A DNA stretch of 64,000 bases from Thermoanaerobaculia bacterium (GTDB lineage Bacteria; Acidobacteriota; Thermoanaerobaculia; Multivoradales; SZUA-115), in assembly GCA_044869955.1 (NCBI GenBank), contig JBIOYC010000074.1, positions 9,114 to 73,113 on the forward strand. Reading direction: 5' to 3'. Of this stretch, positions 6,228 to 48,038 are shown piece by piece (positions within the stretch are counted from its first letter, which is position 1; each line of letters starts with the position of its first letter). The notes below the pieces were generated by a model. That model did not search any database. It saw nothing but the letters and a program-made list of their open reading frames with translations, and had not been told where the DNA came from. The position numbers and the translations under genes are program-made.

Positions 6228-7187
6228 TTGGCCAGACGTCCCCTTCCCCCTCGTCCCCGCTCGAAGGCGAGCCGCCCGCCTCGCGGGTTGCCCATCTTCT
6301 TGGTCGTCTGTGCCCTGGCGGCCGTCGGCTTCGCCTTTTGGATGTACCGCGGAGGCCGTCTCGGCGGCCCGCCCCGGCCGGAGCCCACCGAGGTGGAAAC
6401 ACCCAAGCCTGCCCGGCCTGTGCCGCCGGCGAAGAAACCCGACCACAAGCCCCGCGCCGAGAAGCCGGCGCCGCCCGCTCCGGTCCCCGAAGCCGCTGCG
6501 CCGAAGAAGGGGGGGCGCATCGCCCTGGTGATCGACGACCTCGGCCGCAGTGTCGAGGACGTGCGCCGCCTGGGGCGGCTGGCGGTGCCCTTGAGCTATG
6601 CGGTGCTGCCCTTCGAGCGGGCGACCGCGGAGGTGGTGGCGGCGTTGGCCGAGGAGAGGCGAGAGATCCTCTGCCACCTGCCGATGTCGCCGGACGGCGG
6701 CGCCAACCCCGGGCCGGGCGCCCTGACCGAGGATATGGGGCCGGCCGAGCTGGCCCGGGCCACCCGGGCCGCGCTCGACGCCGTACCCGGGGCGGTGGGG
6801 GTGAACAACCACATGGGCTCGAGGCTCTCGGCCGATCGCCGGGCCCTCGAGCCGATCCTGGCGGTGGTCGCCGAGCGAGGGCTGTTCTTCCTCGACTCCC
6901 GGACCAGCCCCGAGAGCGTGGCCTATCGGACGGCCCGTCAGCTGGGGATCCCGGCCGCCGAGCGGCAGGTCTTCCTCGACCCGGACCAGAGCCCCGAGGC
7001 CGTGCGCTTCCAGTTCGAGCGCTTGGTGGACCTCGCCCGCGAGCGCGGAGCGGCGATCGGCATCGGCCATCCGCACCCGGTCACCCTGGAGGTGCTGGCG
7101 GCCGAAATCCCCAAGGCCCGCGCCGCCGGCCTGGAGTTCGTGCCCGTCTCGTACCTGGTCGACGATCCCGGCGGGCCGCCGGAGTAG
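6228..7187 (+). CDS. Divergent polysaccharide deacetylase family protein (YibQ-like)
   Basis: TM segment plus Pro/Lys-rich linker, then a conserved block (IALVIDDLG, VPLSYAVLP, GVNNHMGS). The family typically follows envC-ctp. The start may be later than 6228. Confidence 0.65.
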   Translation: MARRPLPPRPRSKASRPPRGLPIFLVVCALAAVGFAFWMYRGGRLGGPPRPEPTEVETPKPARPVPPAKKPDHKPRAEKPAPPAPVPEAAAPKKGGRIALVIDDLGRSVEDVRRLGRLAVPLSYAVLPFERATAEVVAALAEERREILCHLPMSPDGGANPGPGALTEDMGPAELARATRAALDAVPGAVGVNNHMGSRLSADRRALEPILAVVAERGLFFLDSRTSPESVAYRTARQLGIPAAERQVFLDPDQSPEAVRFQFERLVDLARERGAAIGIGHPHPVTLEVLAAEIPKARAAGLEFVPVSYLVDDPGGPPE

Positions 7188-7188
7188 A

Positions 7189-9722
7189 TCACCCCTCCCC
7201 TCGCAGCACCTCGATCGGGCGCTCCGCGAGGGCGCGTAGCGAGGCCGCCAGGCCCGCCACGGTGGCCAGGGCGATGGTGAGGCCGAGGGCGGCCAGGAAG
7301 GGCCAGGGCGAGCTCTCCCAGGGCACCTCCATGCGGCGAGTGAGCACCACCCAGGCGAGGGCTCCGGCCCCCGCGGCGCCGATACCCCCCGCCACCAGCC
7401 CGGTCAGGGCGTACTCCACGGCGAAGGAGCCGGCGACGCCCCAGCGCGTCATGCCCAGGGTCTTGAGCAGGGCCACCTCCCGGCCCCGGCGGGCTGCCGA
7501 GGCGGAGACCGCCCCGGCCAGGATGGCGATGCCGGCGAGGGTGGTGAAGCTGCCCAGCAAGCGCACGCCCAGGCTGATGCGGCGCAGCACCTCCGCCACC
7601 TTGGTGAGGATCTCGCGCACGTTGATCAGCGTGACGTTGGGGTAGAGGAAGGCCAGCTCGTCCTGGAAGGCCTGCTCGCGGTCGTCGGGCAGGCGCACCG
7701 CGGCCACCCGTTGCTGCGGGGCGTCGGCGAGGGCGGCGGGCTCGGCGATCAGGTAGAAGTTGAGGCCGAAGCCTTCCCAGTTCACCGTACGCAGGCTGGT
7801 GACGGCGAGGTCGAGGGTCACGCCCTGGATGTCGAAGGTCAAGAGGGAGCCGAGCGACAGCCCCAGCTCGCGGGCGTACTCCTGCTCGACGCTGACCTCC
7901 AGCTGGCGGGCGTCGTCGAAGAGCTTGCCCTCCACGACCTCGTTGTCGGCGGGCAGCTGGTCGAGGTAGGTCAGGCGTTGCTCGCGGGTGAGGGCCCAGC
8001 GCTGGCCGCCCCGGCGGGTCCTGGCGAGCTCTTCGGTGGAGGCCCCGTCGATCGCCGCGAGGCGGGCGGTGATCACCGGCACGGAGTCTTGGCGCAACGA
8101 GCCGTGGGCCGCCAGCAGCGCGGCGACGCCCTGCCACTGCTGGGGTTGGATGTCGATCAAGAAGAGGTTGGGGGCGTCCTTCGGCAGCTCGGCTTCGAGC
8201 CGGCCGGCGAGGCGATCCTCGACCAGAAAGGTCGCCAACACCACCAGCACCCCGAGGCCCAGGGCGACGATCGCGCCCAAGGTTCCGGATCCTGGCCGGG
8301 TCAGGGCGGCGAGGCCCTGGGTGAGCTGGATGGACCCGCTCGGGAGCCGGTCTCGCAGGCGGCGGGCGAGGCGGATCAACCCCCAGGCGGCGAGGGTCAG
8401 CAGCCCCCCGGCGACGGCGATGCCGGCGGTGAAGCCCAGGCCGGCCAGGACTGACTGGGCCTGGAAGCTGGCGAGGCCGAAGATGCCCGCCCCGAGCACC
8501 GAGGGGATTGCCCACCGCGTGACCCGATTCGACGGCAGGCGCTCGGCGTTGCGGCGCAGCACACGGGCGGGCGGCACCTGGAGCAGGGCGGTGAGGGGGC
8601 CGAGGCAGAAGATCGCCGCCACCAGGGTGCCCAGGCCGAGGCCGCGGAGGATCGCGGCCGGCTGCCAGGGCTGGACGACCCCGGCGGGCACCAGCGGACC
8701 GAGGGCCGCGGGCAGGGCGAGCTGCACGAGGACCCCCAACAGGGCCCCCACCAGGCTGCCGAAGAGGCCCAGGGCGACCGTTTGGCCGACGTAGAGCCAC
8801 AGCACCTCGCGGGGTCGGACCCCCAGACACTTGAGCACGGCGATGGCGTCCAGCCTTCCTTCGAGCCAGGCGCGTACGGTCTGGGCGACGCCGATGCCGC
8901 CGGCCAGCAAGGAGAGTAGGGCCACCAGACCGAGGAAGCTCTCGGCTCGGCGGATCCCCCGGCGCAGCTCCGGCTGGGCCTCGGTGTAGGTCTCGACGCG
9001 GTAGCTCGCCCCGGCCTGGTCCTTGAGCCGCTTGGCCAGGGGCGACAGCTCGTCCGCCCGCCAGGTCGCGGGGGCCTTCCACAGCAGCTTGTTCTCGACC
9101 CGGCTGCCGCGGGCCACCAGACCGGTGCGGGCCAGACCCTCGCGCGAGAGGAAGAGCCGCGGCCCCAGGGAGAAGGCGCCGCCGATGCGATCGGGCTCCG
9201 AGATCACCTCGGCGCGCACGACGAAACGGGCGCCACCCACGGCCAGCGGGTCGCCCACGCCGACGCCGAGGGCCCGCAGCAGGTCCGGCTGGGCCACGGC
9301 GCCTTCGGCATCGAGGACCTCCGTGAGGCGACCCGGGGGCTCCAGGGCTACCTCGCCGTAGAACGGATAGCCCGGCTCGACCGCCTTGAGCTCGACCAGC
9401 CGGGAGGGGCCCGGGCGGCCATCCTCACGGGGTGGACCGGCCACCAGGGTGACGGTCTCCTCGATGCGGGAGAGGGCGCTACCCGGAATCGCCGCCAGCG
9501 TGGTCTCCACCTCCGGCGGGATCGGCCGCCAGCTCTCGATGGCCAGGTCGGCGCCCAGCAGCTGGCGGGCCTCGCCGCGCAACGAGCGGTCGAAGCCCGT
9601 GGCCAGGCTCGCCACCGCCACCACCGCTGCCACTCCCACCGCCAGGCAGGCGACGAAGAAGACCACGCGCCAGCGCTGGCCGCGCGCCTCCCTCGCGAGG
9701 TGGGAGAAGAAGAAGGAGGCCC

Positions 9723-40833: not shown

Positions 40834-42047
40834 AGCCGCGCCTGCCGCTCGAGATCGAGCTGGCATGGCGCTTCGCCCGCGGCCGGCGCAGCGGCCTGCT
40901 CGCCGGGACGGCGCGGGCTGCCCTGGTGGGAGCGGGGCTGGGAGTGGCGTCCCTGGTGATCGCCATGGCCCTGATGACCGGCTACAGCGAGGACCTGCGC
41001 ACCAAGCTGCTGGGGGGCAACGCGACGGTGGGCATCTTCCCCCTGGACGACCCCCAGGCGGGCCTCTCCCCGGCCGAGCTCGAGCAGTTGGCGGCCTTGC
41101 CGGGGGTGACCGGCCTGGGTCACGTCCTCTACCGCCAGGGGCTGCTGGGCCGCGGGCTCTCCGCAGCGGGAGCGGTGGACGTGACGCTGCGCGGGGTCGA
41201 TCCGGGCGCCGACCGCCGGGCGACTCCCGACCAGCTCGCGAGCGGACCGGACGGCGTTCCCGGCGCCGTGCTGGGTGCGGACCTGGCTCGCCGGCTCGGT
41301 GTGACAGCGGGGGAGAGGGTGGTGCTGACGGCTTTCGAGGCTCCGGCCGGCGGGCGGCCCCGCTTCCGTTTCCAGAGCCTGCGCGTGGCGGGGACCTTCG
41401 AGAGCGGCTTCGCGGAGTTCGACCAGTCCTGGGCCTTGATCGACCGCCAGGCCCTCTGGCGCATCGCCAGCGCCGGGCCCCGGGCGTTCTACGAGCTGGC
41501 CCTGCGCGATCCGGCCTCGGCGCCGGGGATCACCGACACGGTGCGCGGCCTGCTCGGCGAGCGTTTCGGGGTCTCGGACTGGCGGGACCTCAACCGAGAG
41601 CTCTTCGCGGCCCTGGCCCTGCAGAAGCGGCTGCTCTTCCTGGTGCTCGGGCTGATCGTCCTGGTGTCGACCTTCAACGTCGCCTCGACCCTGGTGGTCC
41701 TGGTGCGCGAGCGGATGCGGGACCTCGGGGCCCTGGCCGCCCTGGGCCTCGGGCCGCGGTCCTTCGCCGCGGTATTCCTGCTCTGCGGCGGCTTCCTGGG
41801 GCTCGTGGGCACGGCTGCCGGCATCCTGGGCGGCAGCCTGGTGTGCTGGGTGCTGACCCGCTGGGAGCTGATCCGTTTCGATTCGGACGTCGCGGCGGTC
41901 TATTTCTTGAGCTCGGTGCCTTTCCGCGTCGACCTCGGGGACCTGGCGGCGATCAGTGGCCTGGCTCTTGCTCTGACGCTCGCGGTCTGCCTACTACCGG
42001 CCATTCGGGCTGCCCGGATCGAACCGGGAGATGCCCTTCGGGCGTAA
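40830..42047 (+). CDS. lolE: FtsX-family ABC permease (LolC/LolE-like)
   Basis: Four TM helices with a large periplasmic loop in MacB/LolCE topology. The start overlaps the carA stop. Confidence 0.75.
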
Positions 42048-42077
42048 CGGAACGAGCCCCTCGAGCGTATTGTTTTC

Positions 42078-42299
42078 GTGAACGGAACCTGGGTGATGTC
42101 AGCACCGCTCCCCGACCTCACCGTCGCGCTCTCGAGCTCCAACCCTTGGGCTTGGGTGGCGGCGATCCGGCTGGCCTTGCGCCGGGCCGGCCGTCCCCAG
42201 ACCGAGATCGAAGAGTTCAGCGACGAGGCGCTGGAGGACCCTCGCCCCGACGCCGTGCGCAAGGTCTGCGAGCGCTGGGCCAGGGTCGAGCACGCGTAG
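42078..42299 (+). CDS. Possible small hypothetical protein (73 aa)
   Basis: The only support is high GC3 and that it fills a gap. It is followed by hairpin CCCCGATC-N12-GATCGGG. Confidence 0.25.
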   Translation: MNGTWVMSAPLPDLTVALSSSNPWAWVAAIRLALRRAGRPQTEIEEFSDEALEDPRPDAVRKVCERWARVEHA

Positions 42300-42347
42300 G
42301 CTCCCCGATCGCTGAGCACGGAGATCGGGTTCTCCCCCCCTCGCCGT

Positions 42348-43994
42348 TCACCGGCCCAATCTCCTCACCTTCTCCTGCGCCGCCTCGTAGTTGGCCGACC
42401 CGGCCGGCACCTTGGCGTAGGCCTGCTTGGCGCGGGTCTCGTCCTTGACCCGCCGCTCGTAGAGGCTGCCGGCGCGGTACCAGGCATCGAAACGGGTGTT
42501 CGGGAAGCGGCTGCCGAGGTCGGTGAGGGTCCTGGCCGCCAGCTCCCAGCGCTTGGCTTCTTCATAGAAGCCGGCGATCTTCCACAGCGCCTGCTCGGCG
42601 GCCGGGTCCTCGGGGTAGCGCTGCACCAGGGTGCGGAGGGTGACCAAGGTGGCGGGAGAGGAGCCGCCCAGCTCTGGATCTCGCTGCCAGATCTTCTTGC
42701 GCTCCTCGATGTCGGCCTTGAGCAGCAGGGCGGGCAGCTCGCTCGGGCTGCCCGGATAGCGCTCCAGCAGCTCGACCAGGCGGCGCCGGGCGCCTTCGGG
42801 GTCGGCCGGTCGACCTTCGAGGAGGGCACGGGCTTGCTGGAGGAGAGCCTCGGCCTCCCCCGCTGGGGTCGAGGCGCCGGTGCCCTGAGCTTCCCGCCTC
42901 GCCGGCAGGCTCGGAGCCGGTGCGGTCGTCTCTGCGGCGGGCTCCGGGCTCGGCGGTGGGGCTGCCGGAGCCTCCTCGGTGACCCGTGGCGCGGTGGCCA
43001 CGGCCGGTGGAGCGGGGGCCGGTCGCTGGACCGCCCGTACCAGGAAGTAGCCGCCGAAGAGCAGGGCCAGCGCGGCGACCAGCGAGCCCACCACCAGCAC
43101 CACGCCCGGCCCCCGCCCGTTGGGCGAGAAGCCAAACAGGCGCCGGGTGGTGCGCGAGATGCCCTGGATCTCACCCAGCAGGCGCAGGTTCAGGTCCGAC
43201 TCCAGCTGCTCGAGGTCGGCGCGGAGCTCGCGCACCGTGCCGTAGCGGTGGCGGGGGTCGGCGGCGATGGTGCGCAGGATCACCGGGTCGAGGTCCGACG
43301 GCAGGTCGGCCACCAGCTGGCTGGGCAGGCTGATTCGGCCGCTCGGCAGCCGCCCGGTGAGCAGCTCGTAGAAGATCGAGCCCAAGGCGTAGAGGTCCGA
43401 GCGGGCGTCCGGCCTGGCGCCGTTGGCGAGCTCCGGGGCGAGATAGCGGATCGCACCGACGTTGACCTGGCCGGTGGTGAGGGTGACGCCCTCCGGGCGC
43501 GTGGGCAGCATGCGGGCGGTGCCGAAGTCCGCCACCTTGACCTCGGTGAGGTCTCGGCTGAGCAGAACGTTGCGGGGCTTGAGGTGGCCGTGGACGAGGC
43601 CCAGTCCGTGAGCGTGCTCGAGGGCCGCAGCCACCGCCCGGACGATGTGGAAGACCCGGTGGAGAGGCTGGCGGCCCTGCCTCATCAGGGCCTCGAGCGA
43701 AGGTCCGTCGACCAGCTCGGTCGCCACCCAGACCTCGTCGCCGGCGGCCTTGTAGTCGAGGATGCGAACCACGTTGGGGTGCTGGAGACGTGCGACGGCG
43801 GCGAGGTCCTTGGCCAGCTCGGCCACGGCGGCGGCGTCCTGGCGGAAGCGCGTGCCGGGCAACTTGACGGCGACCAGGCGCTGGTCGCGACGATCGATCG
43901 CTTTGAGGACGGCGGCGGAACCAGTCTTCGAGAGGGTCGCCGAGACCTCGTAAGGTCCGATCTCGAGCGGCGCGTTAGTTGGCATCGTGCTCAA
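42348..43994 (-). CDS. Membrane-anchored Ser/Thr protein kinase homolog, predicted pseudokinase (HGH replaces HRD), with an extracytoplasmic TPR-like domain
   Basis: A kinase fold with VAVK Lys, DFG and APE present, but the catalytic loop reads VHGHLKPRN with no catalytic Asp. One TM (GVVLVVGSLVAALALLFGGYFLV) and a C-terminal TPR-like region. Confidence 0.7.
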   Translation of the reverse strand: MSTMPTNAPLEIGPYEVSATLSKTGSAAVLKAIDRRDQRLVAVKLPGTRFRQDAAAVAELAKDLAAVARLQHPNVVRILDYKAAGDEVWVATELVDGPSLEALMRQGRQPLHRVFHIVRAVAAALEHAHGLGLVHGHLKPRNVLLSRDLTEVKVADFGTARMLPTRPEGVTLTTGQVNVGAIRYLAPELANGARPDARSDLYALGSIFYELLTGRLPSGRISLPSQLVADLPSDLDPVILRTIAADPRHRYGTVRELRADLEQLESDLNLRLLGEIQGISRTTRRLFGFSPNGRGPGVVLVVGSLVAALALLFGGYFLVRAVQRPAPAPPAVATAPRVTEEAPAAPPPSPEPAAETTAPAPSLPARREAQGTGASTPAGEAEALLQQARALLEGRPADPEGARRRLVELLERYPGSPSELPALLLKADIEERKKIWQRDPELGGSSPATLVTLRTLVQRYPEDPAAEQALWKIAGFYEEAKRWELAARTLTDLGSRFPNTRFDAWYRAGSLYERRVKDETRAKQAYAKVPAGSANYEAAQEKVRRLGR

Positions 43995-45264
43995 AAACTA
44001 TCACGCTGTCTCCGACCTGGATCCGGTCGAGATCCCTCAGCCGAGTCTCGGTCGCCGGCTCGCCGTTCACCCTCGTGCCGAAGCTCGAGCCGAGGTCGCG
44101 CAGCAGGAAAGAGCCGTCCGCGTGGGCCTCGACGGCCAGGTGCTCCTTGCTCGCCTGGCTGTCCGAGAGAGTCAAGGTGCAGGAGCGGGAGCGGCCAACG
44201 ACCGTCGTGCCCTCGCCCAGCAGGACGCTGGCGCCGCGCTCCGGCCCCTCGAGCACGTAGAGCCGCGCCGGGCCCGCGCCTCGCGCGGCTGGCTGGCGGC
44301 CGGTGCGGTCGGTGAGCTCGACAGTGCGCATGGGAAAGGGGATGGTGATGCCGGCGCGCTGGAACGTCTCCCAGATCCGTCCGCGGATCTCACTCCCGAC
44401 CCGTGGCGCGCTCGAGTAGTCCTCGATCCAGACCCGCAGCTCGTATTCGATGGCGCTCTCGGCGAAAGAGAGGTTGAAGACCTCGGGCGTGGGGGTCTCG
44501 AGCACGCCGTCCACCCCCTTGACCGCGTCCAGCAAGGCCCGCCGCACGCGGTAGGGAGGCGTGCGGTAGTGGGCCCCGACCACGATGCGCTCCATGTGCA
44601 GCCGGTGGGGCAAGGCGAAGTTGAGCACCCGCTCGTCGGCGATCTTGGCGTTCGGGATGATGACGTGGTCGTTGTCGCGGGTGCGCAGGTGGGTGGTGCG
44701 CCAGGTGATGGCCACCACCCGCCCCTCCTGGTCGCCGACGCGGATCCAGTCGTTGATGCCGAAGCTGCGTTCCAGGCTGACCACCAGGCCGGCGAAGAAG
44801 TTGGTCAGGATCGGCTGGAGGGCCAGGCCGAGCACCAGAGAGGTCACGGCGCTGGTGGCGAGGATGCCCTTGAAGTCCGCCTTCTCGAAGGCCAGGGGCA
44901 GGGTGACCAGCGCGGCCAGCAGATAGCCCGCCCCGATCGCCACGGCGGGTAACAGAGTGGGAATCGCCACCCCGCGCCGGACCCTGAGGTGAACCTCGAA
45001 GAGGTAAAGGGTGGCCAGGCGGAGGGCCAGCGCGATCGGCACGAAGAGCAGGCACCAGAAGAGCAGCTCGGCGAGGACCGGCTTCTTGGGTGCGCCCTCG
45101 AAGAGCTGGTAGACCTCGAGGGCCACGGCCAGGAAGGCCACGTTCAAGGGCAGGGCGAATTGCCGAACCAGGAGGAAGCGGCGCGAGAGGAGGGCGACCA
45201 GGAGGAAGCCGACGAACAGGGCGCCGAGGCTCGCGGCGAGTGCGGGCAGCAGGGAGGCGAGCAT
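43975..45264 (-). CDS. MscS-family mechanosensitive channel with a C-terminal FHA domain
   Basis: Five TM helices plus the MscS beta-domain, then an FHA domain (VVGRS..C...L.D...S..H, GS.NGT.VNG). Its 3' end overlaps the pseudokinase start by 20 bp. Confidence 0.75.
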   Translation of the reverse strand: MLASLLPALAASLGALFVGFLLVALLSRRFLLVRQFALPLNVAFLAVALEVYQLFEGAPKKPVLAELLFWCLLFVPIALALRLATLYLFEVHLRVRRGVAIPTLLPAVAIGAGYLLAALVTLPLAFEKADFKGILATSAVTSLVLGLALQPILTNFFAGLVVSLERSFGINDWIRVGDQEGRVVAITWRTTHLRTRDNDHVIIPNAKIADERVLNFALPHRLHMERIVVGAHYRTPPYRVRRALLDAVKGVDGVLETPTPEVFNLSFAESAIEYELRVWIEDYSSAPRVGSEIRGRIWETFQRAGITIPFPMRTVELTDRTGRQPAARGAGPARLYVLEGPERGASVLLGEGTTVVGRSRSCTLTLSDSQASKEHLAVEAHADGSFLLRDLGSSFGTRVNGEPATETRLRDLDRIQVGDSVIVFEHDAN

Positions 45265-45347
45265 GGGAGGAGACTGGCTCAGAGGGCGGCCGAGAGCAGG
45301 GCTCGTGGCCGAGCGTCCATGGCCGTGCCCGGCAGTCTAGCAGCAAG

Positions 45348-48038
45348 CTACTCCCGCACCACCCGGAAACCCCGGTAGGCCGGCGCGGCGTCGCCCGAGC
45401 CCTTGGGAGCGCGCGGCTGGTCGGCGCTGGGGCCCAGGAGCTTGGCGCTGCCATCCTCGGCGAGGACCCACTCGGCGGCGTTGCCACCGAGGTCGAAGAG
45501 GGGCTCGGTGGTGCCCAGGGCGTCGAAGCGGCCGACCTCGGCGAGCAGGGGACCCTCGCCACCGAGGGCCGCGGCGGCGTTGCGGAGAGCCTCGGCCTCC
45601 TCGGGGTTGGGAGCGAACCCAGCCCAGTGGTCGAGGGTGTTCCCCAAGGTGCCAGCCGACTTGCGCAAGGCGGCCACCTCGGCCTCGCGGGGCAGCCGGT
45701 AGCGCTCGCCCGTCCTCATCGAGAGCCACTCGCAGTAGGCCCGGGCCTGCTCGAAGAGGATGCCTGTGGCCGGGTAGTTCGCCCTCGCGGCTGGCACCGG
45801 GTAGGTTGGATCGAACGTGGCGTACTGCGCGCGGGTGACCTCGAAGCGGCCGAGGGTCAACCCCTCGTGGGCCACCACCTCGGGGACCAGGACTCCCGCC
45901 ACCAGTCGCCCCAGCCGGCCATCGCTGGCGACGGAGCGGGCCCGCTCGAGGGCCCGGCCGAGGGGGGAAGTCGGCGCGAGCGCCGCTGGTTCCGGCGGGA
46001 CCTTGGTGAAGAGGTAGCGGTCGAGCCAGGCGAGCTCTTCCTCGACCTTGCGCCGCTGGTGGACGTAGCGGCCGAGACCGTGAGGCTCGCCGGGAAAGAG
46101 CACCAGCCGCACGGTGCGTCCGGCTTGCTGCAGGGCCCGGTAGAGGGACCAGCTCTGGCTGGGGGGGACGTTGCGGTCCTCGGTGCCGGTAAAGACGATC
46201 GTCGGCGTGGTCACCTCGGGCAAGCGGAAGAAGGGGCTCTTGTCGACATAGCGCTGGGGGTCCTCGAGCGGCGAGGCTCCGAAGTAGAGCTGGTCGAAGG
46301 CGGCGCCGAAGTCGACGTTGCCCCAGTCGCTGATCCACTCCACGTCCGCGGCGCCGATCGAGGCTGCCTTGTAGCGGTGGGTGCGGGTGATCAACTCGGC
46401 CGAGAGAATGCCGCCGTTCGACCAGCCGGTGGTGGCCAGGCGCTCGGGGTCGACCAGGCCACGGGCGATCAGAGCGTTCACCCCGGCTTCGAGGTCGGGG
46501 ATCTCGAGCTCGTAGTACTTGCCGCCTGTGATCGACTCCACCCACTCGAGACCGTAGTTGCTGCTGCCGTGGTAGTTGACCTCGAGCACGAAGGCGCCCC
46601 GGGAGAGCCACAGGGGCAGGGGCTTACTGACCCGGAAGGTCCACTGGTCGAGGTCGGCCCCGGCCGGGCCGCCATGGATGGCGAGGATGAGCGGCCGGCG
46701 CTCGCCCTCGCGCCAGTCGAAGGGGTAGCGCAGGATCCCCTCTACCTCGTCGCCTCGGGCGCCGCGGAAGCGCATCACCGCGCTCTTGGGCCGCGGCTTG
46801 CCGGCCCAGCCGGGGTTGGGGTGGATCGTCGGCTCCGAGGCCACGAGACGCGTCCCCTCGAGCCGAGCGCGCATCCAGACCGGAGGGTCCGAGGGCGTTG
46901 AGTGCTCGTAGAGGATGCGCTGGCCGTCGCGGCTCGCGACCCAATGGAAGACGTGGCCGGCGTGCTCGCCTTCGAGAGCGGAGCGCCGGTGGCTCGACCC
47001 GTTTCGCACGAAGCGGGCAGGGCGGTGGCGGACGCCGTCGGCGAGGAGGGCCAGGAAGCCGTCCGGAGTGGCGGTGAGGGAGCCGACCTCGCCCAGCCCA
47101 CGCGCCCAGCCAAGATCGACCTTCTGCTGGCGCCCGCTCACCACGTCGTAGTGGTAGACCTCGCTGATCGTGGCCTGGAGGTAGACGGGGTGGCTCGCAC
47201 GCTCGGCGGCGAAGTAGAAGCCCTGGCTGGCCGGTTGCCAGGCGACGTGGGAGGGGAACAGTCGGCTGCCCTCGAGGAGCCGTCGGGACTCGCCGGTCCC
47301 GAGGTCGGTCAACCAGGTGGAAGGTGCCAGCCGATTGTCGTAGCCGAAGGCGAGGCTCTGCTGGCGGCGGGTCACGGCCCAACGGCCGTTGGGCGAGACG
47401 GCGAGCAGGTCGATCCAGTCCCGGTTGTCGGTCAGCCGGGTGATCTCTCCCGACTCCAGGGCCAGGCGGAAGAGGCGGGTGGGAGGGGTGAGCGGATCCT
47501 CGACGACGATCGAGGTGTCCTTGGCCTTCTCGGTCTCGAGCTCCAGGCGCGTTGGCTCCTCCGGAGCCACGAGGACGACGTGCCCATCGTCCTGCCAGGC
47601 GAAGGTGGCCAGGGGCCGGGCCAGCGAGGTCACCGGCCAGGGCTCGCCGCCACCGAGGTCGAGCAGGAAGAGCTGGCTCGGCGCGAGCTTCTCGTCAGCT
47701 GCCTTCTCGCCGCGCCGGGGCCGATCCGAGAGGAAAGCTAGGCGGCGGCCGTCGGGAGAGAAGCGGGGGGAGCCGTGGTGGTCGGCGCCGCGGGTCAGGG
47801 CGAGCTCGCGGCCGTCGTCGAGCGAGGTCAGGAAGAGGTTGGAGGCGACGGTTCCCTTCTCCTTGTCCATCACCCGCTTGACCCACACTGCGCTACGTCC
47901 GTCCGGGGCGATCTCGACCTCCTGCACCGTCTCCTGGAGCAGCAGGTCGTCGACCGTCCACTCGCTGCTGCCGGCGACGGCGGGCTGGTTGACGCAGAGG
48001 GCGAGGAGAAGAGTCAAGGCCGAGACTGGCGAGCGCAT
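45348..48038 (-). CDS. Secreted tri-domain protein: TolB-like beta-propeller, S9 prolyl-oligopeptidase-family alpha/beta hydrolase, and a C-terminal FGE-sulfatase (SUMF1-like) domain
   Basis: Signal peptide. PD40-like repeats (SPRFSPDGRRLAFLSDR). S9 nucleophile GWSNGG. C-terminal GNAAEWV and YRGFRVVRE are typical of formylglycine-generating-enzyme domains. Confidence 0.7.
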   Translation of the reverse strand: MRSPVSALTLLLALCVNQPAVAGSSEWTVDDLLLQETVQEVEIAPDGRSAVWVKRVMDKEKGTVASNLFLTSLDDGRELALTRGADHHGSPRFSPDGRRLAFLSDRPRRGEKAADEKLAPSQLFLLDLGGGEPWPVTSLARPLATFAWQDDGHVVLVAPEEPTRLELETEKAKDTSIVVEDPLTPPTRLFRLALESGEITRLTDNRDWIDLLAVSPNGRWAVTRRQQSLAFGYDNRLAPSTWLTDLGTGESRRLLEGSRLFPSHVAWQPASQGFYFAAERASHPVYLQATISEVYHYDVVSGRQQKVDLGWARGLGEVGSLTATPDGFLALLADGVRHRPARFVRNGSSHRRSALEGEHAGHVFHWVASRDGQRILYEHSTPSDPPVWMRARLEGTRLVASEPTIHPNPGWAGKPRPKSAVMRFRGARGDEVEGILRYPFDWREGERRPLILAIHGGPAGADLDQWTFRVSKPLPLWLSRGAFVLEVNYHGSSNYGLEWVESITGGKYYELEIPDLEAGVNALIARGLVDPERLATTGWSNGGILSAELITRTHRYKAASIGAADVEWISDWGNVDFGAAFDQLYFGASPLEDPQRYVDKSPFFRLPEVTTPTIVFTGTEDRNVPPSQSWSLYRALQQAGRTVRLVLFPGEPHGLGRYVHQRRKVEEELAWLDRYLFTKVPPEPAALAPTSPLGRALERARSVASDGRLGRLVAGVLVPEVVAHEGLTLGRFEVTRAQYATFDPTYPVPAARANYPATGILFEQARAYCEWLSMRTGERYRLPREAEVAALRKSAGTLGNTLDHWAGFAPNPEEAEALRNAAAALGGEGPLLAEVGRFDALGTTEPLFDLGGNAAEWVLAEDGSAKLLGPSADQPRAPKGSGDAAPAYRGFRVVRE

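Follow-up and report, generated by a model that had tools for sequence, protein, structure and literature searches.

In Mycobacterium tuberculosis the pseudokinase MviN, when phosphorylated by PknB, recruits the FHA domain of FhaA (PMC12599244); in the type VIIb secretion system, the pseudokinase YukC binds the FHA domains of YukB, apparently in a phosphate-independent manner (PMC9600267). Bacterial pseudokinases are otherwise largely unexplored; the bacterial serine/threonine kinase atlas and its companion review distinguish seven families, CP1, DYD, ActPs1-3, DLHK and GLW (10.1101/2025.01.12.632604; PMC12599244), in all of which the VAIK lysine is substituted in 34-100% of the members (10.1101/2025.01.12.632604). 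Bacterial MscS-like channels are usually viewed as tension-gated safety valves, and a review of September 2026 names the bCNG (bacterial cyclic nucleotide-gated) channels as the special C-terminal fusion among them (PMC13591265). Here we describe a 64,000-nucleotide (nt) stretch of DNA, called the window, from a Thermoanaerobaculia bacterium (contig JBIOYC010000074.1). It carries two overlapping open reading frames (ORFs) on the minus strand, the upstream one for an MscS-type channel ending in an FHA domain and the downstream one for a membrane-anchored kinase-like protein. The pair suggests a so far undescribed way of placing a bacterial ion channel under phosphorylation control.

The reading we prefer, on which our confidence is evenly divided, is that channel and pseudokinase form a conserved membrane module of Acidobacteriota in which the FHA domain docks on the phosphothreonine (pThr)-bearing activation loop of the pseudokinase, phosphorylated in trans, and so tunes the channel. 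An earlier note on this DNA had seen in it a probably dead kinase beside a phospho-reading channel, with either a scaffolding role for the pseudokinase or control by a second kinase. As far as sequences can tell, that proposal is supported by the pairing of the genes, the loss of catalytic residues, the conservation of threonines and FHA residues, and selection.

The gene pair and its two products

The genes and their parts lie as follows (window positions; aa, amino acids).

43975..45264, minus strand: MscS-FHA gene, 429 aa; Pfam hits, PDB sequence matches to MscK, MscS and YnaI; identical to P0121
44770..44874, minus strand: pore-lining TM3-like helix, channel residues 131-165; hydrophobic segment and GLALQ motif alignment
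43978..44268, minus strand: FHA domain, channel residues 333-429; translation and alignment to FhaA (Rv0020c), OdhI and GarA
43975..43985, minus strand: 11-nt gene overlap, channel stop codon and kinase-like ATG (ATGCCAACTAA); read from the sequence
42348..43985, minus strand: kinase-like (putative pseudokinase) gene, 545 aa; kinase fold, long helix, transmembrane helix, Pro/Ala-rich linker, TPR-like domain
43569..43595, minus strand: catalytic loop VHGHLKPRN, residues 131-139; translation and PknB alignment
43431..43529, minus strand: activation segment from DFG to APE, residues 153-185; translation; Thr168 and Thr171 in T-L-x-T-G-x-[IVL]
43038..43106, minus strand: single transmembrane helix, residues 294-316; hydropathy and translation, helix 295-320 in the model
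42354..42866, minus strand: extracytoplasmic TPR-like domain, residues 374-544; Pfam TPR_6, model and Foldseek

The kinase-like ORF can also be read from a TTG (42348..43994, minus strand), which yields the 548 aa given in the earlier note; the ATG at 43985 is the more likely start because the 545-aa product matches the public gene call P0001 exactly. The note had placed a 20-bp overlap at the start of the channel gene. The overlap lies instead at the 3' end (stop codon) of that gene, which is the upstream one, and it measures 20 nt only from the TTG and 11 nt from the ATG. An identical 11-nt overlap was found in the gene calls of L001, L002, L003 and L088. Across 77 loci the junction ranged from a 29-nt gap to a 26-nt overlap, with overlaps of 11 nt in 23 loci, 8 nt in 12, 20 nt in 11 and 14 nt in 5, the start being taken as the in-frame ATG nearest to the channel stop, a heuristic biased to short distances. 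The kinase-like gene is thus predicted to be translationally coupled to the channel gene. A promoter and terminator scan of 41900-45700 gave no match, which is uninformative at 70% G+C.

In Pfam the channel matched MS_channel_2nd (E 2e-20), MS_channel_3rd (3e-12) and a C-terminal FHA domain (3e-14), in agreement with the earlier note. Residues 62-322 matched MscK, MscS and YnaI in the PDB (E 1e-23 to 1e-15) and residues 316-424 matched OdhI, GarA and FhaA. Hydropathy indicated five hydrophobic segments, as in YnaI. Alignment of the GLALQ motif put L143 and L147 at the constriction residues L105 and L109 of E. coli MscS, and these leucines were conserved in 82 and 83, respectively, of 83 family members (counts for the channel and its FHA domain refer to 82-83 members throughout). 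By its beta and alpha-beta cytoplasmic domains, pore leucines and PDB matches, the 429-aa protein is predicted to be a channel of the MscS family. To our knowledge, the C-terminal cage of MscS is cytoplasmic in every solved structure; the FHA domain and the kinase-like domain would therefore share one compartment, both anchored to the membrane.

Five residues are the hallmarks of FHA domains, Gly69, Arg70, Ser85, His88 and Asn107 in the numbering of Rad53 FHA1. Four of the five are present in the window channel as Gly357, Arg358, Ser372 and His375, and in the family the Gly-Arg pair is found in 82/82, the serine in 80/82 and the histidine in 82/82 members. The equivalent of Asn107 is Phe395 ('dlgssFgt', compared with 'dlnstNgt' in FhaA, whose FHA domain is the best solved-structure match), so that the domain departs from a canonical pThr-binding FHA domain at this fifth position. 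Across the family, position 395 is occupied by F in 39, H in 22, K in 7 and N in 7 of 82 sequences. Since the conserved asparagine is replaced, atypical or phosphate-independent FHA binding is possible. The FHA domain might accordingly bind the pseudokinase constitutively, the latter being a structural subunit or chaperone of the channel. The lost asparagine and the coupling of the two genes would suit such an arrangement, and in the YukC case the pseudokinase domain co-purifies with the FHA region of YukB on expression in E. coli, a host without typical Hanks kinases (PMC9600267). However, the phosphate-binding residues of YukB/EssC are unconserved, while 80-82 of the 82 channel sequences retain Arg358, Ser372 and His375.

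Searched exhaustively, 1.84 billion cluster representatives yielded no more than about twelve clusters at 50% identity whose match to the channel runs through its FHA domain. The next-best matches were a large set of ~500-aa proteins covering channel residues 5-330 only; those that were scanned (P0262, P0263, P0267, P0271 and P0305) bear a C-terminal cNMP_binding domain and are of the bCNG type. Membership of the window channel in the bCNG group was rejected, as it has no cNMP_binding match and carries the FHA domain in its place. P0293, likewise of ~500 aa and bCNG-type, also belongs to the closest relatives lacking an FHA domain, and at this position of the channel an FHA and a cNMP domain seem exchangeable for one another.

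The kinase-like protein matched Pfam Pkinase (PF00069) over residues 18-219 (E 5.6e-33, above the gathering score) and TPR_6 over residues 468-500 (E 3e-13). Its active site was mapped by HMMER alignment to M. tuberculosis PknB (E 3e-33), which is unambiguous over the catalytic loop: 'glvHGHlkprN' stands opposite 'giiHRDvkpaN' of PknB, so that HRD has become HGH, with the catalytic Asp replaced by His134 and the preceding Arg by Gly133. Translation of 43569-43595 agrees, and the loop is as the earlier note had read it. The glycine loop, LGFGGMSEV in PknB, is LSKTGSAAV; it departs from GxGxxG, S-K-T-G-S-A standing against G-F-G-G-M-S with one Gly left, and must be regarded as degenerate. The alpha-C Glu (PknB Glu59) is replaced by Asp, and the GT of the P+1 loop by GA (Thr to Ala). 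Retained are the VAVK Lys41, Lys136, the Mg-binding Asn139, DFG (D153) and APE (E185), and the activation-loop residues Thr168, Thr170 and Thr171 fall opposite Thr171 and Thr173, at which PknB autophosphorylates. The Hanks-kinase fold with its VAVK, DFG and APE motifs, as first described from the letters, was therefore recovered by both the Pfam match and the PknB alignment.

An AlphaFold2 model of the 545-aa protein, built from a 40-sequence alignment, had a mean predicted local distance difference test score (pLDDT) of 85.9, with a confident kinase domain, a long helix (251-283) and a confident helical C-terminal domain; the activation loop (161-173, pLDDT <50) and the Pro/Ala-rich linker (321-368) were disordered. 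In Foldseek the kinase domain matched PknB, PknA and PknI at TM-scores of 0.75-0.84, and the full-length model returned kinases only. The C-terminal 170 residues modelled alone gave a TPR-like solenoid (pLDDT 95.5), which matched only generic TPR proteins, among them the periplasmic BamD, YfgM, YbgF, PilF and LbcA as well as MamA (E ~1e-4, TM-score ~0.5-0.6). Hydropathy, the TPR_6 match and this model bear out the single transmembrane helix and the extracytoplasmic TPR-like domain of the earlier description.

Public annotation calls the kinase-like proteins 'protein kinase' or 'TolA-binding protein'. An identity of the TPR domain with Tol-Pal YbgF/CpoB or with BamD was rejected, the scores being 35.6 bits for TIGR02795 (cut-off 90.1) and 20.9 bits for TIGR03302 (cut-off 81.4); in the NCBIfam scan all matches were far below the curated cut-offs and no named family was obtained. 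An anti-phage defence system was rejected as well, for PADLOC gave only generic kinase-domain models (PD-T4-6, mad6) for the kinase-like protein and none for the channel. In the kinase domain (43200-43964), the region from helix F to helix H (residues 212-232) is ~14 residues shorter than in PknB, and the model has just a 4-residue helix (221-224) at the expected position of helix G. An L-P-S-Q motif in this region is ~95-100% conserved in the family and is present in some canonical relatives such as P0022.

Conservation of the pairing and loss of catalytic residues

The MscS-FHA alignment was scanned against one genome per species (GTDB set), which gave 80 loci, all from Acidobacteriota metagenome-assembled genomes (MAGs) of Thermoanaerobaculia, Holophagales and Ca. 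Multivoradales. Pairing was counted in 82 loci with room downstream for a partner gene, from 80 species-level genomes. A kinase-like ORF directly followed the MscS-FHA gene in 81 of these 82, at channel identities down to 46% and with flanking genes differing between loci. The sole exception is L023 from a Holophagales MAG (6297-7943), where an alpha/beta-hydrolase gene (Abhydrolase_1/Abhydrolase_4) lies between the two. On the contigs of P0002, P0005, P0014, P0007 and P0006 the MscS-FHA gene was directly upstream each time, with unrelated flanks. P0019, a canonical-HRD relative with the same TPR_6 tail, has no MscS-FHA neighbour.

The adjacency also bears on whether the two products are merely expressed together, the FHA domain reading other phosphoproteins or the linker of the channel and the kinase-like protein having an unrelated, TPR-based role in the envelope. 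FHA domains are promiscuous readers of pThr, a distant MscS-FHA gene (L089) has no kinase neighbour, and in L023 the two genes are separated. But direct adjacency in 81 of 82 loci with changing flanks, a pairing that outlasts the loss of the TPR domain in most members, and the joint change of the FHA asparagine position and the catalytic state of the kinase make this explanation decidedly improbable.

Partner residues were counted in 78 unique informative kinase-like partners. The position of the HRD Asp is occupied by H in 25, S in 17, D in 13, N in 11, R in 3, G in 3 and by others in the remainder, Asp being missing in 65. The catalytic-loop Lys is kept in 9 (lost in 69), the Mg-binding Asn in 45, the VAIK Lys in 58, the DFG Asp in 62 and the P+1 Thr in only 4, and the full canonical catalytic set in none. 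The HRD His is kept in 75/78 and the APE Glu in 77/77. With falling identity to the window protein, the loops of relatives read HGH (81%), HRH (54%), HRR (49%), HRN (46%), HAN (41%) and HHA (34%); in short-form relatives (~320-360 aa) the loop is HGHLSPRH. The clade of the window shows HGH, HRH, HRR, HGN, HAN and HLN. As to the conservation of HGH, which the earlier note had left to a survey of orthologues, loss of the Asp is spread over the clade and the substitute residue varies. The contrary case, in which orthologues would carry HRD and the window copy would be a lineage-specific degenerate, was not found, since HRD occurs in distant orthologues only and the loss is ancient. Within tight subclades the former Asp site drifts (HRS, HRG, HRA, HRN), and for this reason constraint at the site appears to be lost.

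An atypical active kinase, with His134 or another residue as the base, could phosphorylate itself and/or the channel and be read by the FHA domain. The clade of the window keeps the VAVK Lys, Lys136, Asn139 and DFG, basal family members keep HRD, and there is precedent in several proteins, CASK and HER3 among them, which were first predicted to be pseudokinases and turned out to retain activity. However, the residue at the Asp position is unconserved even in the clade of the window, the glycine loop has degenerated, Ala stands in for the P+1 Thr, the catalytic loop of the family has gained no conserved acidic residue, and crown relatives further lose the catalytic Lys, Asn, VAIK Lys or DFG Asp. 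Activity of this kind is therefore quite unlikely.

The threonines of the activation loop behave differently from these residues. Thr168 is kept in 74/78 partners (95%) and Thr171 in 73/78 (94%), position 174 (Thr171+3) is I/V/L/M/Y in 72/78, and the pair is held while adjoining loop residues vary. Many FHA domains prefer pT-x-x-(I/L/V), a preference that the motif T-[LIV]-x-T-G-x-[IVL] would fit. The ~95% conservation of the pair amid a variable loop speaks against a constitutive, phosphate-independent scaffold, as do distant pairs with canonical, presumably autophosphorylating kinases; the failure to find a partner kinase or phosphatase conserved nearby speaks for it. Taken with the FHA evidence above, we regard the constitutive scaffold as unlikely, though it deserves serious consideration.

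Ratios of nonsynonymous to synonymous substitution (dN/dS, NG86 method), calculated against an 81%-identical orthologue, were 0.18 for the kinase-like domain, 0.22 for the TPR domain and 0.17 for the channel, with 0.23 for the neighbouring S9 peptidase gene in the same comparison. Values of 0.18-0.22 indicate that selection maintains the kinase-like gene. That it is a pseudogene in decay, or an artefact of annotation, might have been suspected from the lost catalytic residues and the unusual TTG start. This has next to no probability and was ruled out by these ratios, conservation, intact ORFs in 78 genomes, the high-confidence AlphaFold model and the agreement of the ATG start with public gene calls. 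With its fold kept, the HRD Asp lost and selection acting on it, the kinase-like protein is predicted to be a pseudokinase, which from its sequence we infer to have lost phosphotransfer chemistry.

In a neighbour-joining tree of the channels, midpoint-rooted and rough, long partners (640-700 aa) made up a basal grade. HRD, the VAIK Lys, the alpha-C Glu, the Asn and DFG are intact in them, with the catalytic-loop Lys changed to Asn, Ser or His; they have TPR_6/YfiO-like periplasmic domains and the top Pkinase scores (E 1e-39 to 1e-48). The clade of the window is intermediate, with the sensor domain, Lys, Asn and DFG kept and the Asp gone. Crown partners of ~320 aa are without the periplasmic domain and show further losses, and the TPR domain is lost in most family members. 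The canonical FHA asparagine is present in seven channels, six of which have an HRD-retaining partner (Fisher p = 4e-5, uncorrected for phylogeny), an association that may represent only one or a few events; in crown members both the asparagine and HRD are gone. Outside the 80 loci, an MscS-FHA protein 40% identical to that of the window (P0391, locus L090, 5001-8044) has a fully canonical kinase 5 nt downstream, with the motifs GRGGMAVV, VAIK, HRDLKPSN, DFG and GT, a transmembrane helix and a periplasmic TPR domain; this arrangement is likely the ancestral state of the module. As distant pairs hold canonical or near-canonical kinases, the pairing predates the loss of catalysis. The partner would thus have become a pseudokinase with no loss of the pairing, of the Thr residues or of the phosphate-binding pocket.

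A conserved third gene for an active kinase or a PP2C phosphatase was sought across the 80 loci and not found, and the 64-kb window holds no further kinase. Recurrent neighbours in the 80 loci are acyl-CoA dehydrogenases, a GGDEF-EAL protein and an aldo-keto reductase, a pattern that resembles local synteny inside the crown clade; several other neighbour 'clusters' were discarded as antisense shadow ORFs without a Pfam match. The GGDEF-EAL gene lies downstream of the pair in ~27-30 crown-clade loci (e.g. L086 9259-11124, L087 10932-12983, L066 from 7278), and its recurrence could stem from synteny by descent or from a functional tie to cyclic di-GMP signalling. On the P0007 contig (JGI 3300043331) a HAMP-SpoIIE (PP2C-type phosphatase) gene is directly upstream of the pair, the only locus seen in which a phospho-signalling enzyme adjoins it. 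In L089 (2028-3756) the short MscS-FHA gene has on its flanks a YoeB/Phd pair and a DarT-Macro pair, the latter a DarTG-like toxin-antitoxin.

In the window, a gene for an 896-aa fusion of PD40/Peptidase_S9 (prolyl oligopeptidase) with a C-terminal FGE-sulfatase-like domain (45348-48038, minus strand) is found on the channel gene's strand, 83 bp upstream of that gene; it is kept in the 81%-identical relative L001 and missing from more distant loci. Among the kinase-like relatives, P0010, P0021 and P0026 (~570-600 aa) carry two kinase-like domains in tandem, a degenerate N-terminal one ('IIVRSISPPS'; 'LTDLRH' for DFG) and a C-terminal one with canonical HRD, and represent a JAK-like pseudokinase-kinase tandem in bacteria.

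A proposed mechanism and its weak points

Under the preferred reading of a channel tuned through a phosphorylated pseudokinase, an active Hanks kinase encoded elsewhere in the genome would phosphorylate the pseudokinase on Thr168 and/or Thr171, and the modification would be undone by a PP2C phosphatase. The FHA domains below the heptameric channel would bind the phospho-loop, on the model of GarA with PknB and of FhaA with MviN, and the tethered cytoplasmic cage might then shift the gating threshold or alter the localisation of the channel. The phosphorylation in trans, the binding of FHA domain to activation loop and the effect on gating are all inferred. The periplasmic TPR domain, kept in the clade of the window, could add an envelope input. 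Envelope sensing, which the earlier note had coupled to osmotic release, is possible for such long forms, but most family members have no periplasmic TPR domain.

Several observations weigh against this reading. Neither an active Hanks kinase nor a PP2C phosphatase is conserved beside the pair in the 80 loci, and the FHA domain is without the backbone-contacting Asn, having F, H or K there in most family members. The VAIK Lys, catalytic-loop Lys, Asn and DFG are retained, so residual or unusual catalysis is possible. Conservation of the activation-loop threonines could in part be inherited structure, as threonines are common there in active kinases too. The effect of the pair on gating is purely conjectural, and the bCNG channels are themselves poorly understood (PMC13591265).

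A bolder form of the proposal, which we advance tentatively and with more doubt than conviction, is that in this module a mechanosensitive channel is gated by phosphorylation. It would be the first family of ion channels in bacteria with gating under Ser/Thr phosphorylation control, exerted through the FHA reader built into the channel and a dedicated, dead kinase adaptor descended from the channel's own active receptor kinase. If that were true, the series that leads from canonical kinase to pseudokinase would document in nature how a kinase becomes a pure phospho-scaffold. The series is graded, with canonical, near-canonical, dead with sensor and dead without sensor forms, and offers natural material for the change from kinase to scaffold.

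Comparison with described systems

Full-text literature searches found nothing on MscS-FHA fusions, on their kinase partners, on pseudokinases of Acidobacteria or on MscS phosphorylation by Hanks-type kinases. The kinome atlas and its companion review make no mention of Acidobacteria or of mechanosensitive channels (PMC12599244; 10.1101/2025.01.12.632604), and the words FHA, kinase and phosphorylation do not occur in the 2026 review of MscS-like channels (PMC13591265). Within the searchable literature the combination and the pseudokinase lineage appear undescribed, whereas the parts and their logic, pseudokinase with FHA domain and MscS core with C-terminal regulator, are known. Of the catalytic triad the window protein loses only the HRD Asp, a pattern undescribed for the seven pseudokinase families, with which it was compared by description. 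On the same comparison by description it would represent an eighth bacterial lineage, recognisable by its fixed partner. The module would join the MscS and pseudokinase fields, and it is a candidate route for control of osmolyte release by Hanks kinases.

To the MscS module the bCNG channels stand closest in sequence (31-43% identity across residues 5-330). They too have a regulatory domain attached at this C-terminal position, in keeping with the view that a C-terminal domain modulates an MscS-type pore. They differ in that the window channel has an FHA domain and not cNMP_binding, which would make its input a phosphoprotein instead of a small molecule, and in that a dedicated partner gene lies beside it.

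PknB and GarA share with the pair the kinase fold and an activation-loop Thr pair, Thr171 and Thr173 in PknB, and the solved PknB-GarA complex 6i2p was among the sequence and structure matches of the kinase-like protein. The GarA FHA domain is said, in work of Villarino et al. from 2005, to dock on the phosphorylated activation loop of PknB. PknB is active and autophosphorylating, in contrast to the window protein, whose glycine loop is not intact and which has neither the catalytic Asp nor the P+1 Thr.

The YukC/EssB proteins of the type VIIb secretion system are built alike, with an N-terminal cytoplasmic pseudokinase domain, one transmembrane helix and an extracellular C-terminal domain, and the FHA domains of YukB/EssC are likewise built into the neighbouring membrane machine (PMC9600267). 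These FHA domains are, however, without pThr-binding residues, whereas Arg, Ser and His are essentially invariant in the window family. YukC lacks most Hanks motifs and ATP binding, while the window protein is close to PknB (E 3e-33), and the partner of YukC is a secretion ATPase where that of the window protein is a channel.

A functional parallel to the reading proposed here is MviN (MurJ) with FhaA (Rv0020c), in which a membrane-anchored cytoplasmic pseudokinase domain serves as a phospho-dependent FHA dock and PknB acts in trans. MviN belongs to the ActPs3 family, in which VAIK Lys, HRD Asp and DFG Asp are missing, as is, in many cases, the activation loop (10.1101/2025.01.12.632604). The window protein differs from it in keeping the Lys, DFG and a full activation loop, and the regulated machine, a lipid II flippase in the case of MviN, would here be a channel.

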